DNA of 41,380 nt from Candidatus Falkowbacteria bacterium (GTDB taxonomy: Bacteria; Patescibacteriota; Patescibacteriia; Patescibacteriales; XYC2-FULL-47-12). Location: positions 1 to 41,380 of the forward strand of contig JBDRNG010000005.1 of assembly GCA_043811275.1 (NCBI GenBank). Direction: 5' to 3'. Each line of letters opens with the position of its first letter. Position 1 is the first letter of the stretch. A program made the position numbers and the translations under genes. Below, in pieces: positions 3,929-39,662 of this stretch. The notes beneath the pieces were generated by a model, which did no database searches, was not told where the DNA came from, and saw nothing but the letters and a program-made list of their open reading frames with translations.

Positions 3929-4627
3929 TTATTTTATTTTTTTACTATTCTTCTTTCTCCATCCCTCAATCTTCTTATGGTCTCCAGAAAGAAGTATTTT
4001 TGGAACCTTTAAACTGCGTCCGTTAATTTTGAAAACTTCCGGTCTAGTATAGTGCGGATGTTCTAAAATATTTTTTTCAGAATGGGATTCGTGTAAAGTA
4101 GATTCTTTATTACCTAATACACCAGGTAAGAGGCGAGTGATAGAATCAGTAATTATCATAGCGGGAAGCTCACCGCCGGTTAAAACATAATCGCCCACAG
4201 AAATTTCTGTATCCACGAACTGCTTAATACGCTCATCAACTCCTTCATAGCGTCCGCAAATTAAAATCAAATTATCTAGCTTAGCGTATTTTTTCGCCAT
4301 CGCTTGATCCCACTTTTTGCCCTTGGCAGATAACAGCACAATTTTTGAATTTGAATTTTTAAATTTTAAATTTGTTTTGGATTTAGAGTTTTGGTATTTG
4401 GAATTTATAGTACTCAATGCCTTTAAGATAGGTTTGGCCATTAATACCATCCCCGCTCCTCCGCCAAAAGGGCGATCGTCAACCGTTTTATGTTTATCTT
4501 TAGTCCATTTGCGCAAATCATGAGTTTTAATTTTTATAATTTTTTTTACTCGCGCGCGTTTAAGAATACTCTCGTTAATGTAAGAGTCTAGTATTTGAGG
4601 AAAGATGGTGATGATGTGGAAGTTCAT
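3929..4627 (-). CDS. trmD: tRNA (guanine37-N1)-methyltransferase TrmD
   Basis: ITIFPQ, TVDDRPFGGGAGMV, ICGRYEGVDERI, SVGDYVLTGGELPAM and HPHYTRP. Confidence 0.92.
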   Translation of the reverse strand: MNFHIITIFPQILDSYINESILKRARVKKIIKIKTHDLRKWTKDKHKTVDDRPFGGGAGMVLMAKPILKALSTINSKYQNSKSKTNLKFKNSNSKIVLLSAKGKKWDQAMAKKYAKLDNLILICGRYEGVDERIKQFVDTEISVGDYVLTGGELPAMIITDSITRLLPGVLGNKESTLHESHSEKNILEHPHYTRPEVFKINGRSLKVPKILLSGDHKKIEGWRKKNSKKIK

Positions 4628-4640
4628 AAAATAATTTTAA

Positions 4641-4772
4641 ACCCTAAGCCCAAAGCTCAAAACAAATTTAAATTTTAAAAATTCAAATACCTAAACTATG
4701 TCCATGTTTTGAAAATTCATTCATTTGAATTTTGGATTTGTTTTGGATTTAGAGTTTAGAGTTTTGGAATTT
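4641..4772. repeat. AT-rich long inverted repeat (hairpin element, family A: ccaaa/tcaaaat/aacaaat arms)
   Basis: Left arm cccaaagctcaaaacaaatttaaatttt... pairs with right arm ...gaattttggatttgttttggatttagag. The same arm style occurs at 18567-18708 and inside the 23S gene. Confidence 0.7.
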
Positions 4773-18074: not shown

Positions 18075-18566
18075 ATGAAAATAGCAATTATTTCAGATAC
18101 TCACGATAATATACCGAACTTGGAAAAGGCGTTGGCGTGGATGAAACAAAATAATATAAAGCAATTGATTTGCTGTGGTGATGTCTGTAATAGTGAAACT
18201 TTAAAATATTTAGCAGAGAGTTTTAAGAATAAAATCCACTTAGTTTATGGTAACATGGAACTTTACGAACAAAATGAAGCAAAACAGTATGATAATATTA
18301 ATTTTTTAGGGCGTTATGGAATTGTCAGCATAAATAATAAGCAAATTGGAATATGCCATGAGCCATGGTTTGTAGATAAAATTTTAGAACAAGATAAATA
18401 TGATATTATTTTTTATGGTCATACTCATAAGCCGTGGGATGAGATGGTGAAAAAAATCAGAATGCTAAATCCGGGAACTTTAGCTGGCATGTTTTATAAA
18501 GCTACTTTTGCGGTTTGGGATACGGAGAATAATAATTTTGAGCTTAAAGTTTTAGAAGAGATGTAA
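18075..18566 (+). CDS. YfcE/MJ0936-type metallophosphoesterase
   Basis: ISDTHDN, CCGD and GHTHKP motifs. Confidence 0.8.
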   Translation: MKIAIISDTHDNIPNLEKALAWMKQNNIKQLICCGDVCNSETLKYLAESFKNKIHLVYGNMELYEQNEAKQYDNINFLGRYGIVSINNKQIGICHEPWFVDKILEQDKYDIIFYGHTHKPWDEMVKKIRMLNPGTLAGMFYKATFAVWDTENNNFELKVLEEM

Positions 18567-18708
18567 TAAATACCAAATACCAAAGTTCAAAATTCAAAAC
18601 AAATTTAAAATCTAAATTTATAAAATTCAAAACACGACGGCCGAGTTTAAAAATTTGAATTTTGAATTTTAATATTATTTTGGATTTTGTGCTTAGGATT
18701 TTGGAATT
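18567..18708. repeat. Family A AT-rich long inverted repeat with a small GC apex (cgacggccg)
   Basis: The arm ccaaataccaaagttcaaaattcaaaacaaat pairs with tttgaattttgaatttt...ttttggattttgtgcttaggattttgg. Confidence 0.7.
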
Positions 18709-18715
18709 AAAAAAA

Positions 18716-26389: not shown

Positions 26390-27085
26390 ATGAAAAATTT
26401 TAAGAAATTGGAGGATTCCATTGGAGTTAATTTTAAAAATGAGGACTTATTAAAACAAGCCCTTGTCCATCGTTCTTATATTAATGAACATAGTGATTTT
26501 GAACTTGACCATAATGAACGGTTAGAGTTTTTAGGTGATGCGGTTTTAGAAATTGTGGTTACTGAATTTTTGTATCATAAATTTCCAGAAAAACCAGAAG
26601 GGCAGTTAACCAACCTGCGTGCTAGTTTAGTGAACGCCAAGATGCTGACACAGATAGCTTATGAACTAGGGATTGAACCCAATTTATATTTAAGTAAAGG
26701 AGAATCAAAAGACAGTAATACTAAAGCGCGCAATTATATTATAGCTGATGCGGTTGAGGCTATTATCGGAGCGATTTATTTAGATCGAGGAGCAAGTGTT
26801 GCTAAGAAATTCATTGTAGAAAAAATCCTTTCTCATTTAGACGAAGTGCTGGATCAACAGCTTTATTTGGATCCTAAAAGCACTTTTCAGGAAAAAGCGC
26901 AGGAATTATATAATATTACCCCTCATTATTCCGTACTTTCTGAAATAGGACCAGATCATAAGAAAATATTTGATGTAGGGGTTTATATTGGCGAAGAATT
27001 AGTCGCCAAAGGCAAGGGAACAAGTAAGCAAGAAGCGCAGGTTGAGGCGGCTTTAACGGCTATTGAGAAGAAAAAATGGTCATAA
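26390..27085 (+). CDS. rnc: Ribonuclease III
   Basis: NERLEFLGDAVLE signature, ADAVEAIIGAIYLD, and a C-terminal dsRBD. Confidence 0.92.
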   Translation: MKNFKKLEDSIGVNFKNEDLLKQALVHRSYINEHSDFELDHNERLEFLGDAVLEIVVTEFLYHKFPEKPEGQLTNLRASLVNAKMLTQIAYELGIEPNLYLSKGESKDSNTKARNYIIADAVEAIIGAIYLDRGASVAKKFIVEKILSHLDEVLDQQLYLDPKSTFQEKAQELYNITPHYSVLSEIGPDHKKIFDVGVYIGEELVAKGKGTSKQEAQVEAALTAIEKKKWS

Positions 27086-27581: not shown

Positions 27582-28007
27582 TTGAATAAAAAGCTAATTA
27601 AAGCTAATTAAAATTAGATCAAATATATTTATTGCAATTTCAACCCTGTTAAATATCCTATAGATATTACAGGGTAAAAATCTTGTTAGATATTATTTGC
27701 AACTTTTAACAAGATTAATTCCGTAAAACGGAATAAATCCCGTAAATCTTAACGGGATAAACTTTATGGATATAAAATCTGTAAGGTAAAGAGTAATTTA
27801 AGGGTGTATGGTGAATGCCTTGACATTAAGAGACGATGAAGGACGTAGCAGCCTGCGATAAGCCTCGCTTAGGTGGCAAGCAACCTTTGAAGCGGGGATT
27901 TCCGAATGGGGAAACCCACTCTGTTGAAGACAGAGTATCCTGACATACGTCAGGATGAGTACCCGGGGAATTGAAACATCTTAGTACCCGGAGGAAAAGA
28001 AAAAAAT

Positions 28008-28122
28008 GCTTTGCAATTTTACATTTGACATTTAACCACGCACTCACTATGTGAAGCGTGGTAAACTTTTGACTTTTAACCTTAAGTTGATTGTCAACTG
28101 TCAAGTGTAAAATTTGCGAAGC
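28008..28122 (+). other. 23S insertion 1: about 115-nt hairpin roughly 220 nt from the 5-prime end
   Basis: It lies between ggaaaagaaa and attccgtaagtagtggcgagcgaa, which are only about 10 nt apart in E. coli. The stem is gctttgcaattttaca/tgtaaaatttgcgaagc. Confidence 0.75.
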
Positions 28123-28460
28123 TTATTCCGTAAGTAGTGGCGAGCGAAAGCGGATCAGCCTAAACTTTATAGACCGCGTTTTTATTTTGGCTTCGGCTAA
28201 TTTGAGAACAGAAGGACCCAAGTCCATATGTCTATAGGGTGTTATAAGATTTTTATATTTATTGCTTGGATTCAATAAGGTAGAGACAAAATTTATAATT
28301 TCTAATTGAACGGTCTGGAAAGGCCGGCCAAAGATGGTGATAGCCCAGTAAGTGAAAGAAATTATAACTCTACGATAAAAATTCTTAAGTAAGGCGGGAC
28401 TCGAGAAATCCCGTTTGAAGTTGGGTCGACTATGATCCAAGGCTAAATACTCTTAATGAT

Positions 28461-28497
<37 letters not shown>

Positions 28498-28554
28498 CAT
28501 CCCGGGAGGGAGGTGAAATAGTACCTGAAACCATATACTTACAAAGAGTAGGAG

Positions 28555-28659
28555 CTTCGCTAACGCTTCGCTAACATTTAACAATTAACATTTAACATTT
28601 GACAAAGATAGTCAGGTGTCAAGTGTCATAAGTTAAGTGTTCACGGAGCGATAGCGGAG
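28555..28659 (+). other. 23S insertion 2: extended helix-25-region hairpin (about 105 nt)
   Basis: It lies between cctgaaacc...agtaggagc and gtgactgcgtgcc. The arms carry aacatttaac / gtcaggtgtcaagtgtca motifs. Confidence 0.75.
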
Positions 28660-29290
28660 TGACTGCGTGCCTATTGAAGAATGAGCCAACGAGTTGCTTC
28701 TATGTGGCTTACATAAATCTCGTTTTGGGAGATATGTGTAGTGAAAGCGAGGGTTAACCGCCCGTATTCTTACTTTATGTAAGATAGTCGCATGGAGCAG
28801 ACCCGAAGCCGAGTGATCTAGCCATGGCCAGGTTGAATGTCGTCGAAAGACGACAGGAGGACCGAACCCACTGATCGTGCAACATCAGGGGATGAGCTGT
28901 GGTTAGCGGAGAAATTCCAATCGAACTCGGCAATAGCTGGTTCTCCTCGAAATAGCTTTAGGGCTAGCCTCGGATGCTGACTACAGGGGGTAGAGCACTG
29001 GATAAGAGTTGGGTCTTCGGATACCATTCTTAATCAAACTCCGAATACCTGTAGGTGTAATCCGGGAGTTAGACTATGGGGGCTAAGCTCCATTAGTCAA
29101 AAGGGAAACAGCCCAGATCACCAATTAAGGTCCCTAAATTCATGCTAAGTGTGAAAGGTGGTGTCGCGACTGCGACAACTAGGAGGTTGGCTTAGAAGCA
29201 GCCATCCTTTAAAGAAAGCGTAACAGCTCACTAGTCTAGTTACCGCGCGCCGAAAATGTAACGGGGCTAAGCATGATACCGAAATTGTGA

Positions 29291-29454
29291 ACCGCACACA
29301 GTGCGGAAATCCCAAATAATAAATTCCAAATTCCAAAGAAATTCTAAATAATAGATTATAAATCCAAAAGTCGACTTTATAATTTTGACTTTATAATTTG
29401 ATATTTCTTTGTTATTTGGTGCTTGAAATTTGGAATTTCCGCACTGCGTGCGGT
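29291..29454 (+). other. 23S insertion 3: helix-45-region hairpin (about 164 nt) with family A AT-rich arms
   Basis: It lies between ggggctaagcatgataccgaaattgtga and ggtagaggagcattc. The basal stem is ccgcacacagtgcgg.../...ccgcactgcgtgcgg. Confidence 0.8.
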
Positions 29455-29994
29455 GGTAGAGGAGCATTCTGTATTTATTGAAGCTATCTTGTGAGAGATA
29501 GTGGAAAGTACAGAAGAGAGAATGTTGGCATAAGTAGCAAAAAGGCGGGTGAGAACCCCGCCCACCGAAAGCCTAAGGGTTCCTGGGCAACGTAAATCGG
29601 CCCAGGGTTAGTCGGTCCTAAGGTGAGTCTAGTGTAATGCTAGGGTAGCCGATGGATGATGCCGTTAATATTCGGCAACTACTATTGTATTTCAATGGAG
29701 TGACGCATTAGCGATGTTTGAGCGTTCTATGGTATGGACGTTGCTACTGGCGTCTGGCTGTTCCAGGTAAATCCGGAACACTTTTAGCCAGATAAAAGTG
29801 GCAGAAGTTGAAGCCTTGTGCGGAAGCAATTCAAGTTGAACTGGTGCCTAGAAAAGCTTCTAGAGCTAATGCAATAGTAACCGTACCGTAAACCGACACA
29901 GGTAGGCGAGGCGAGAAGCCTCAGGTGCACGAGAGAACCTTCGTTTAGGAACTCGGCAAAACAGCGGTCGTAATTTCGAGATAAGGCCTGCCTG

Positions 29995-30160
29995 CCGATG
30001 CGTAGCATCGGAAATTTCAAAATCCAAAATCCAAATAACAAATAAACTCTAAATAATAAATTATAAATTTCAAAATTATCTTTATAATTTAAAGTTTAGA
30101 ATTTAAAATTTGTTTGTTATTTGTTATTTGGTGCTTGTAATTTCCGCTGCTATGCAGCGG
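29995..30160 (+). other. 23S insertion 4: hairpin in the variable helix-63 region (about 166 nt)
   Basis: It lies between ggaactcggcaaa...gataaggcctgcctg and tgggtcgcagctaacgaccccgagtgactgtttatcaaaaacacag. Confidence 0.7.
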
Positions 30161-30281
30161 TGGGTCGCAGCTAACGACCCCGAGTGACTGTTTATCAAAA
30201 ACACAGCTCCCTGCTAACTCATAAGAGGATGTATAGGGGGTGACGCCTGGCCAGTGTCCGAACGTTAAGGGGAAGGGTCAA

Positions 30282-30444
30282 CTGTGTATAGCACAGAAAT
30301 TCCAAATCCCAAATAACAAAAAACAAATAAATTCTAAATCACAAATTCAAAATTTCAAAGAAAGAGTTTTGAATTTAGTGCTTGAAATTTTAAATTTGTT
30401 TGTTATTTGGTGCTTGTATTTTGGATTTTCCGTGCTGTGCACGG
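30282..30444 (+). other. 23S insertion 5: hairpin at the tip of the helix about 40 nt 5-prime of H69 (probably H68), about 163 nt
   Basis: It replaces the short loop between gttaagg..gggtcaa and tgaagcttt...ggccgtaactataacgg. Confidence 0.7.
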
Positions 30445-30475
30445 TGAAGCTTTGAACTGAAGCGCGGATGAACGC

Positions 30476-30516
<41 letters not shown>

Positions 30517-30699
30517 ACGGGTAAGTTCCGTCCTGCACGAATGGCGTAACAACTTGGGGACTGTCTCAACGAAGGACTCGGCGAAATTGCAAGGCGAGTA
30601 AAGATGCTCGCTACCCACAGCCGGACGAAAAGACCCCGTGAAGCTTTACTACAGCTTGATATTGTATTTTGATATGCTCTGTTCAGCATAGGTGGGAGA

Positions 30700-30903
30700 C
30701 TGTGCGCAGCACAGAAATTCTAAAGAGTTTTTAAACTCAAATACCAAAGCACAAAATTCAAAATAAATTAAAATAATAAAATTTAAATGATCATCCCGAG
30801 TGTTCGGGATTGAACATTTAATATTTGAATTCTAATATTGTTTTGAGTTTTGAGTTTAGGATTTTGAGCTTGAGATAATTTGGAATTTCCGTGCTGTGCG
30901 CAG
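30700..30903 (+). other. 23S insertion 6: about 200-nt hairpin occupying the L1-stalk (H76-78) region
   Basis: It lies between ataggtgggaga and ttgccagtgagataccaccc. The apex carries tcccgagtgttcggga. Confidence 0.7.
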
Positions 30904-31262
30904 TTGCCAGTGAGATACCACCCTTAGTCTATTAGAATACTTACCTCCCTCCGTTATCCGGAGAAGGGACAGTATCTGGTGGGTAGTTTGTCTGGGGCGG
31001 ATGCCTCCCAAAATGTAACGGAGGCGTTTACAAAGGTTGGCTATCCCGGGATGGAAACCCGGGAGATAGTGTAAAGGCATAAGCCAGCTTTACTGCGAGA
31101 CCTGCAAGTCAAGCAGTTGCGAAAGCAGAACTTAGTGATCCGACCGTCCAATATAGGATGGCGGAAGCTCAACGGATAAAAGCTACTCCGGGGATAACAG
31201 GCTAGTCCTTTCCAAGAGTTCACATCGACGAAAGGGCTCGGCACCTCGATGTCGGCTCGTCT

Positions 31263-31293
<31 letters not shown>

Positions 31294-31339
31294 TGGCTGT
31301 TCGCCAATTAAAGAGGCACGCGAGCTGGGTTCAGACCGT

Positions 31340-31751
31340 CAAGTAATTGAAGATTTATGATTTTAGATTTATGATTTCTTCAATTTTTTGACAATCTGAA
31401 CCCTTAAAGACAATTACGGCGGCGTTTAGCAGTAATGCTAAATGTAAAGCTAACTTATATCGGTAGAATCCTAAAAATGTGATGAGAAATCACAAAGCTC
31501 TAATCTCTAAATCCAAAACAAATTCAAATAATAAAATTTAAAATACGGCGTTTTTGAACATTATAAATTTGAATTTTGATATTATTTTGAGTTTAGGATT
31601 TATGATTTTGAGTTTTTATAAATATTAGGATAATACCGAGGGAATCCTTAATTTAAGATATTAAGGAGCCCGTAGAGACTAAACGTTAGCCTCCCGAAGC
31701 ATTTCGGGATGAAGTTATAGTCCATACACCTGGTAACAGGTGAGTAATATG
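31340..31751 (+). ncRNA. ORF-less group I intron in 23S domain V, at the site equivalent to the I-CreI / Cr.LSU homing site
   Basis: It interrupts gaccgu|cguaagacaggucgg. The 5-prime exon can end in U and the intron in G. R-like element guAGAGACUAAAc at 31672-31684, S-like element gAAGuUAUAGUCC at 31711-31723. P3 is gctaac/gttagc, P4 is tcggta/taccga, P8 is tcccgaa/ttcggga, and P9 is cacctg-GTAA-caggtg. Confidence 0.75.
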
Positions 31752-32228
31752 CGTAAGACAGGTCGGTCTCCTATCCGCTGTGGGCGTTGAAATTTGAGAA
31801 GATCTTTCCCTAGTACGAGAGGACCGGGAAGGATAAACCTCTGGTGTACCAGTTGTTCTACCAAGGGCATTGCTGGGTAGCCACGTTTAGTTAGGATAAG
31901 TGCTGAAAGCATATAAGCACGAAGCCGTCTTCAAGATTAGATTTCGTAGGATCGTCAGAGACTATGACGTTGATAGGCCCTATGTGTAAGCGCAGTAATG
32001 CGTTAAGCAGAGGGGCACTAATAATCCATTTTACTCTTTACCTTTTAGGTTTTATACACTGAGTCAATAGATATATTTAGAAATATTTCTATAATTACTT
32101 TTTTTAGTTAAAAATAAATAGAATACACAATCTTGGTGCTTCTTGTCCCGTCATTCAACGGGATAAACTCCGTGGTATTTTGTCATAAAGGCGAAATTAA
32201 AGTAGCGCATTAAAATTAAGTGTAAAAT

Positions 32229-32344
<116 letters not shown>

Positions 32345-39603: not shown

Positions 39604-39610
39604 TAAATAT

Positions 39611-39662
39611 TACGATGTCAATCCCGAGTACTCGGGACTCTAACCAACTGAGCTATATGCCC
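39611..39662 (-). pseudogene. 5-prime-half tRNA-Val pseudo-copy in which a 16-nt hairpin replaces part of the anticodon stem
   Basis: The reverse complement is GGGCATATAGCTCAGTTGGTTAGAG-[tcccgagtactcggga]-TTGACATCGTA. There is no matching T-arm or 3-prime acceptor strand. Confidence 0.65.

Follow-up and report, generated by a model that had tools for sequence, protein, structure and literature searches.

A group I intron without an endonuclease gene after U2593 of a Candidatus Falkowbacteria 23S rRNA gene, with an AT-rich block nested in P5

The 41,380-nucleotide (nt) stretch of DNA analysed here (the window; Candidatus Falkowbacteria bacterium, contig JBDRNG010000005.1) contains a 23S ribosomal RNA (rRNA) gene that is interrupted in domain V by 412 nt at positions 31340–31751. 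We concluded, with a probability of about 0.88, that this insert is an endonuclease-free group I intron, which splices by the standard pathway and whose P5 helix received a repeat later. The gene and the intron are as follows.

27788–32041, + strand: 23S rRNA gene that contains the intron, 4254 nt long owing to many inserts (2331 bits with Rfam LSU_rRNA_bacteria over model positions 1–2925)
31340–31751, + strand: group I intron, 412 nt, after U2593, with the terminal guanosine (omega-G) at 31751 (alignment, Rfam, covariation)

When the gene was aligned with the E. coli 23S by MAFFT, one 412-nt insert was found at 31340–31751, flanked by GACCGT and CGTAAGACAGG. The numbering of the E. coli copy used was 6 below the standard, as checked at two landmarks (the sarcin-ricin loop and the peptidyl-transferase motif GGGAUAACAGG), and the insert is therefore placed directly after U2593 (L2593). 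This is the site of Cr.LSU, the intron encoding I-CreI, and an I-CreI-type site had been proposed in a first-pass annotation of the sequence. Moving the boundary by one base either way gave an intron ending in C or a broken exon. A 5' exon ending in U and an intron ending in G, as first suggested, are thus the only choice compatible with group I, and the predicted ligated exon junction is GACCGU/CGUAAGAC.

A sensitive Rfam scan of 31300–31800 matched Intron_gpI (RF00028) over the full model (positions 1–253, aligned to 31395–31743) with an E value of 5.4e-8. The score in this search, which the first-pass annotation had recommended, was 37.2 bits, under the curated gathering score of 50 bits, which is an operational cut-off and not a biological criterion. 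A block of 151 nt remained unaligned within P5, and the shortfall coincides with this insert. Compact relatives at L2593 exceeded 50 bits (L114, 68.9; L044, 63.9; L090, at 86% identity to the window intron, 59.7; L057, 56.5); in L009 (349 nt), one of the five family members scanned, Intron_gpI was not found.

Homologues were collected with a degenerate pattern of the R...S core, using one genome per bacterial and archaeal species. The pattern was found at at least 120 loci, mostly in metagenome-assembled genomes (MAGs) of Patescibacteria, and 42 of the 120 loci listed, further introns besides that of the window, carried both L2593 exon flanks at a distance of 232–738 nt. The part from the internal guide sequence (IGS) to the 3' exon was aligned for 22 compact members, the window sequence being entered without 31475–31625. 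RNAalifold alone recovered P10, P2, P4, P5, P6, P6a, P7 and P9; P3, a pseudoknot that the program cannot draw, and P8, which it missed because of loop-length gaps, were added manually and then counted. In the complete hand-drawn fold P2–P10 with the P3/P7 pseudoknot 87.2% of the cells were paired, compared with 33–45% when the partners were slid. Both-side changes were found in 38 of the 57 core pairs, and none of 500 shuffles reached the observed values. The outer P2 pairs were 69% paired, and there the hand column mapping was one register off from that of RNAalifold. The window sequence fits the covarying structure of the family, with the conserved core P3–P9 and its P3/P7 pseudoknot present and no core pair broken. 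Its elements are listed below.

31425–31442, + strand: P2 hairpin UUUAGCA-GUAA-UGCUAAA with a GNRA loop (Rfam, RNAalifold, covariation)
31449–31454, + strand: 5' strand of P3, GCUAAC, partner 31685–31690, pseudoknot with P7 (both-side changes in 5 of 6 pairs)
31460–31474, + strand: 5' strands of P4 (31460–31465) and P5 (31469–31474) (RNAalifold, covariation)
31625–31639, + strand: 3' strands of P5 (31625–31630) and P4 (31634–31639) (RNAalifold, covariation)
31640–31671, + strand: P6 (GGG/CCC) and P6a (CCUUAAU/AUUAAGG) (RNAalifold, covariation)
31675–31681, + strand: 5' strand of P7 in the R element, G31675, bulged A31676, G31677, ACUA (invariant in 22 of 22 sequences)
31685–31690, + strand: 3' strand of P3, GUUAGC (covariation)
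31692–31709, + strand: P8 hairpin UCCCGAA-GCAU-UUCGGGA (double changes in 5 of 7 pairs; compensatory differences from L090)
31718–31723, + strand: 3' strand of P7 in the S element, UAGUCC (covariation count)
31727–31742, + strand: P9 hairpin CACCUG-GUAA-CAGGUG (double changes in 5 of 6 pairs)

The P3, P4, P7, P8 and P9 pairings read by eye in the first-pass annotation are all present in the sequence. Its S element, AAGTTATAGTCC, is exactly at 31712–31723; the R element, AGAGACTAAA, is present as well, but at 31674–31683, one base off the 31675–31684 originally assigned. The guanosine-binding site is made up of G31675-C31723, the bulged A31676 and G31677-C31722, followed by A-U, C-G, U-A and A-U. 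This register of P7 is that of the Tetrahymena intron, with G31677-C31722 equivalent to Tetrahymena G264-C311. A terminal G was found in all 43 L2593 introns collected, by an extraction that did not demand it. To the limit of what sequence analysis can provide, the fold, the guanosine-binding site, omega-G and P10 (see below) are established.

Within the 412-nt insert no open reading frame (ORF) longer than 25 amino acids was found, confirming that a homing endonuclease gene is absent, and the insert had no match among plasmids in blastn. Larger introns of the same family and site encode single-motif LAGLIDADG proteins of 150 amino acids (L014, 189–896) and 144 amino acids (L119, 142–879). These proteins are homologous to I-CreI and I-MsoI, with a full-length match to I-CreI (E 1.7e-17). 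Since these two members encode I-CreI-like enzymes, the intron lineage is tied to I-CreI-type homing, and the window intron, encoding no endonuclease of the I-CreI family, is an ORF-less copy of it.

The block left unaligned in P5 is a derived insert of the following kind.

31475–31625, + strand: L5 insert, 151 nt, in which the small hairpin GUGAUGAGAAAUCAC precedes the 'family A' repeat, an AT-rich imperfect palindrome (absent from three relatives; fold; alignment of copies)

An AT-rich family A hairpin in the P5 extension had been pointed out before, and the block does fold as an extension of P5 (z = −4.75), in which first an A-rich and then a T-rich arm come after the small hairpin. Family A as a whole consists of AT-rich imperfect palindromes of 130–160 nt, the A-rich arm preceding the T-rich one, which are often flanked by a small GC-richer hairpin; fold z scores were −4.75 and −3.70. 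Five copies are found in the 23S gene together with its intron, four of them at 29291–29454, 29995–30160, 30283–30439 and 30700–30906. Further copies are intergenic, at about 4343–4766 (about 4343–4407 and 4658–4766), 18566–18714 and 39605–39637, and the mean column identity of the alignment is 60%. The copy closest to that of the intron is the one at 30700–30906, with 82% identity over 62 nt (30810–30871). Long imperfect palindromes with related copies at unrelated loci, as found for family A, are characteristic of dispersed repeats such as miniature inverted-repeat transposable elements (MITEs) or repetitive extragenic palindromic (REP) sequences.

The same intron is present in L090 (261 nt), L123 (248 nt) and L124 (308 nt), the latter two from the metagenome scan, at 86–89% identity to that of the window and about 95% identity over the first ~85 nt. 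In all three L5 has 3–5 nt, exactly 31475–31625 is missing, and P8 and P9 differ from the window through compensatory changes. The copy at 30700–30906 is absent in L123, L007 and L090. The closest 23S, that of L123, is without both the intron copy and the 30700–30906 copy, while it carries family A copies at other rRNA sites, some of them common to the window, and presence and absence are polymorphic at orthologous sites. The sequences suggest that the 151-nt block is a later insertion of a dispersed palindromic repeat, and the pattern of presence and absence supports a repeat family that was active recently. It may then be a selfish element, as the first-pass annotation called it.

It is also conceivable, although we consider it rather unlikely, that the block is neither mobile nor selfish but a lineage-specific extension, possibly structural, which would have originated either on the spot or through gene conversion by the hairpins of the rRNA. 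Neither a transposase nor a target-site duplication nor defined termini could be recognised for family A, most of its copies lie in the same 23S gene, where intragenic duplication or conversion is possible, and the low-complexity AT-rich composition inflates apparent similarity. An origin confined to the rRNA is difficult to reconcile with the copies in unrelated intergenic regions, with the close similarity of two copies that are both missing from L123, and with three intron relatives that have a plain short L5. If the insertion of a mobile repeat is accepted, a family of palindromic repeats has settled here in loops of the rRNA and of a ribozyme alike, where insertions are tolerated, and the presence and absence differences among relatives can be dated.

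A second family A insertion was considered for the GATTTATGATTT motif in the L1 hairpin (31352 and 31366) and was rejected, because L123 and L124 are without the P5 element and yet have L1 at about 95% conservation. A different hairpin of about 60 nt, with CTGAAATCCGA-like repeat units, follows P9 in L124 (523–830) and in L007 (3653–3940) and is not found in the window, so that insertions at the periphery of these introns vary here as well. The 23S of L090 (CAYXNV010000019.1, 140–5686) resembles those of the window and of Patescibacteria; its label, 'uncultured Gammaproteobacteria', is probably wrong. It contains three additional inserts of about 740–900 nt at places that are empty in the window.

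The pairings of the intron with its exons involve the following segments.

31414–31418, + strand: P10 strand of the IGS, UUACG, partner of the 3' exon CGUAA at 31752–31756 (exon covariation; RNAalifold)
31419–31422, + strand: P1 strand of the IGS, GCGG, partner of CCGU in the exon, the splice-site pair being G.U (complementarity; P1 3' strand of Rfam)
31752–31756, + strand: 3' exon, nt 1–5 (CGUAA), partner in P10 (exon covariation, RNAalifold)
31327–31339, + strand: last 13 nt of the 5' exon (G2581–U2593), of which −13 to −5 pair with the distal strand and −4 to −1 (CCGU) with the IGS
31391–31403, + strand: distal exon-binding strand ACAAUCUGAACCC, complementary to G2581–U2593 and including tctgaaccc (covariation with the exon)
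31340–31390, + strand: L1 hairpin, 31340–31353 with 31377–31390, which extends the exon-intron helix past the splice site (inverted repeat I17; fold; covariation in 8 of 8 intron pairs tested)

The nine contiguous positions 5'-UUACG/GCGG-3' (31414–31422) are complementary to CCGU/CGUAA, with a G.U pair at the splice site, so that both P1 (CCGU 31336–31339 with GCGG, including U.G) and P10 can form. P10 and P1 on one guide strand are the textbook layout of group I introns. The Rfam model places the 3' strand of P1 on CGGCGG, matching the assigned IGS. Just 5' of P2 the family has a conserved (U)CACG-GCGG or UACG-GCGG, and a script found the motif (A)CGGCG[G/A] in 40 of the 41 unique members (L020 has AUGGCGG and L027 has ACGGCGA). 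Position +4 of the 3' exon and the nucleotide four upstream of GCGG were G:C in 29 cases, A:U in 8, G.U in 2 and mismatched in 1 (Fisher p = 7e-7, phylogeny uncorrected). All 8 introns with a CGUA 3' exon, including that of the window, have UACG. GCGG is invariant, and the support for P1 comes from complementarity and position, not from covariation.

In the first-pass annotation tctgaaccc (31395–31403) had been proposed as the IGS. This segment does pair and covary with the exon gggttcaga (31327–31335), but it does not include the splice site, which is defined by UUACG/GCGG at 31414–31422. It was therefore rejected as IGS and kept as a covarying exon-binding strand. Among the 41 unique introns the distal strand and exon position −8 were C:G in 36 and U:A in 5; at exon position −6 the pair was G:C in 23, A:U in 16 and G.U in 2, with no mismatches. 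The helix extends into the intron, where +1 to +8 are matched by the 8 nt before the distal strand, and double changes were found in all 8 pairs. Over 39 sequences 88.5% of the cells of this splice-site helix were paired, compared with 17–50% when slid. U(−1) faces A in 32 of the 39, G(−2) faces C in every one and C(−3) forms a C x A mismatch in 28. In the window intron there are C x A mismatches at both −4 and −3 (31393–31394). L090 was left out of one alignment (A3), as the automatic pick of its distal strand fell on a neighbouring near-duplicate site. The splice-site hairpin has a free energy of −34.4 kcal/mol, with z = −6.65 for 31320–31446. Freeing CCGU from it costs 5.5 kcal/mol, while CCGU/GCGG alone yields −3.6. 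The linker 31404–31413 between the distal strand and the IGS contains an AAGACA(U)CA motif that is conserved in most family members.

Could P1 instead be the long helix 31327–31353/31377–31403, so that cleavage would take place at a U-A pair and GCGG 31419–31422 would be unpaired with the exon? Covariation ties this helix to the exon and to intron positions +1 to +8, its stability greatly exceeds that of CCGU/GCGG, and in it the partner of U(−1) is A in 32 of 39 sequences and that of G(−2) is C in 39 of 39. We nevertheless regard this as improbable. GCGG directly follows the covarying P10 strand, and the two are jointly complementary to CCGU/CGURA, with 9 positions in a row and the canonical G.U; both exons could not be aligned without such a layout. 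The placement of the P1 3' strand by Rfam agrees with this, and a U-A pair at the cleavage site contradicts the U.G that is established as near-universal in group I introns. Furthermore, the conserved mismatch at −3 is expected if the stretch must open.

With P1 on GCGG, the role of the splice-site helix can be read in two ways. According to one reading exon positions −13 to −5 would stay clamped while CCGU swaps to GCGG, as a pseudoknot, which the 10-nt linker and the L1 hairpin make sterically possible. According to the other the splice-site hairpin would be a pre-catalytic state that needs partial opening. Most likely the distal strand and the L1 helix make up for the shortness of the 4-bp P1, as an extra element that binds the exon or helps in folding. 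More specifically, we tentatively propose that the lineage possesses a second, intron-encoded exon-binding strand (31391–31403), paired and covarying with the peptidyl-transferase-loop nucleotides G2581–A2589, that acts either as a pseudoknotted clamp beside a minimal P1 or as a hairpin hiding the 5' splice site while the core is still folding; this is possible rather than probable. If it is true, the distal clamp would give group I introns an equivalent of the bipartite recognition of exons by group II introns. No description of such a helix across the 5' splice site was found for group I introns, but older structure papers were thinly covered and this absence is weak evidence. The 43-intron comparative set provides the lineage with a covariation-backed structure that includes this exon-intron helix, which is testable.

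By homology to the established group I pathway, splicing would start with GCGG pairing to the exon end CCGU, where the splice-site pair is the G.U wobble. The 5' splice site would be attacked by exogenous guanosine, held by G31677-C31722 of P7, after which UUACG would pair with the 3' exon CGUAA as P10 and omega-G31751 would enter the guanosine site. Exon ligation would then restore the H93/peptidyl-transferase region. The strand 31391–31403 is predicted to pair with exon positions G2581–A2589 and to form, with the L1 hairpin, a helix running through the 5' splice site. The 151-nt repeat in the solvent-facing L5 loop is expected to leave the core undisturbed. The lineage probably spreads via the I-CreI-like LAGLIDADG enzymes of some members, the window copy being without one.

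Several points weigh against this interpretation. The Rfam score of the window intron itself is below the gathering threshold, and a scan at that level reports no intron. P1 proper has just 4 bp (about −3.6 kcal/mol), is invariant and has no covariation support. It competes with a far more stable hairpin (−34.4 kcal/mol) in which the splice-site U is paired with A. Finally, a 151-nt AT-rich insert sits in P5 and may affect folding. The low score, the insert and the stable hairpin would also fit an element that is group I by descent but has lost splicing, for instance through the P5 insert, and is now retained in the 23S or cut out by host RNases, leaving a fragmented rRNA; an unspliced 23S intron has been reported in Simkania. 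The gene for RNase III (rnc, TIGR02191, E 6e-70; 26390–27085) is located directly upstream of the 23S gene, which would suit such processing. However, the core helices, the guanosine-binding pair, the IGS, P10 and omega-G are all intact, no core pair is broken, and the insert occupies the terminal loop L5, the usual site of tolerated insertions. Moreover, 412 nt left in the peptidyl-transferase region would be expected to be harmful. We therefore judge a loss of splicing to be quite improbable, slightly more so than a P1 formed by the long helix, and infer that the intron is catalytically active. That the insert is no intron at all but an intervening sequence (IVS) or expansion segment, RNase III-removed or retained like the other hairpin inserts of this gene and the short non-intron inserts that are common in 23S genes of the candidate phyla radiation (CPR) (PMC11270868), is hardly credible in view of the full-length group I model match, the covariation-backed P2–P10 with its pseudoknot, omega-G, an IGS complementary to both exons, and close homologues above the Rfam cut-off.

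The 23S gene harbours, besides the intron, at least 10 non-intron inserts of 18–157 nt within 28002–30906 of the window. They follow approximately positions 221, 266, 289, 544, 648, 1174/1180, 1742, 1862, 2123 and 2143 of the E. coli copy used, whose numbers are up to 6 lower than the standard ones, and some are at classical IVS sites (~544, ~1174). A different short repeat is common to two of the inserts, 28015–28114 (ATTTAACATTTGACA...) and 28573–28626 (GTCAAGTGT...). A 26-nt inverted repeat with 88% complementarity (27771–27796/32031–32056) brackets the 23S gene. The 5S rRNA gene, which the Rfam scan of the window located downstream at 32230–32344, is bracketed by a perfect 23-nt inverted repeat (32212–32234/32339–32361), and both repeats are probably processing stems. 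As no 16S gene precedes the 23S-5S pair, the rRNA genes appear to be unlinked. The flanking genes of the window are bacterial (FtsH, PilB/GspE, S1, RNase III, Prs), its GC content is 34.5%, and the nearest named 23S sequences are those of Falkow-, Magasanik- and Uhrbacteria, at about 85–86%. The 23S similarity to named Patescibacteria MAGs is 85–89% overall, by which a host in the CPR/Patescibacteria is likely.

The insertion site after U2593 is identical to that of Cr.LSU, the I-CreI host intron of the Chlamydomonas reinhardtii chloroplast 23S. It is also identical to that of the L2593 introns of the cyanobacteria Synechococcus and Thermosynechococcus, which are 744–748 nt long and have a LAGLIDADG ORF, a P7.1/P7.2 extension of about 65 nt and a short P5 (PMC1995217). 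In contrast to these, the window intron has no ORF and an enlarged P5. Its elements follow in the order P7, AAC, the 3' strand of P3, C, P8, J8/7 and the 3' strand of P7, with AUA (31724–31726) between the latter and P9. The P7.1/P7.2 extension is absent, and since there is no room for it the window intron falls outside the Cr.LSU/cyanobacterial structural type.

Alternative pairings of the 5' exon, namely P(−1) and an exchange between a P1 extension and P10, are reportedly a feature of the Tetrahymena LSU (large subunit) intron from the work of Woodson and Cech. P(−1) is an exon-exon hairpin. The two introns are alike in that a helix of the 5' exon and splice site is a competitor or a forerunner of the catalytic P1/P10 pairings, and a dynamic P1ex/P10 has been described for the Tetrahymena LSU intron (PMC7877785). 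The window intron differs from the P(−1) case in that the competing strand is intron-encoded, 13 nt long and, over 39 sequences, covarying with the exon, and in that it might be present together with P1 in a pseudoknot.

The family A copies can be set beside known repeats. Rickettsia palindromic elements are dispersed palindromic repeats that insert into genes, and the classical 23S IVS hairpins are comparable. Common to these and family A are imperfect palindromes of 130–160 nt in many copies, at intergenic and tolerated surface positions. Family A differs from these in having one copy within the peripheral loop of a ribozyme, and the likeness drawn here is one of form and location.

The nearest known system is found in the CPR itself. 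Tsurumaki et al. (2024, J Bacteriol; PMC11270868) classified 45% of 968 CPR 23S inserts as group I introns by Rfam. The introns cluster near the peptidyl-transferase centre, and 2593 is among the positions at which LAGLIDADG_1 ORFs were reported (PMC11270868). Many short non-intron inserts were found in the same set of 23S genes, and those at classical sites were suggested to be RNase III-processed IVSs; the 23S intron of Simkania, as cited there, was reported to be unspliced (PMC11270868). No description of the secondary structure of this intron was found in that study, which is a listing of sites and ORFs. CPR 23S introns at 2593 are thus already published, and the window intron is one more of them, alike in probable host group, gene, position, Rfam model and the LAGLIDADG_1 of some copies. 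On its own it adds one ORF-less L2593 case to many in the CPR and changes little. For annotation, the default Rfam threshold misses a repeat-bearing 23S intron in the peptidyl-transferase region, and similar nested cases will escape elsewhere. From the published 2593 introns the window copy differs in being ORF-less and in carrying a nested AT-rich palindrome.

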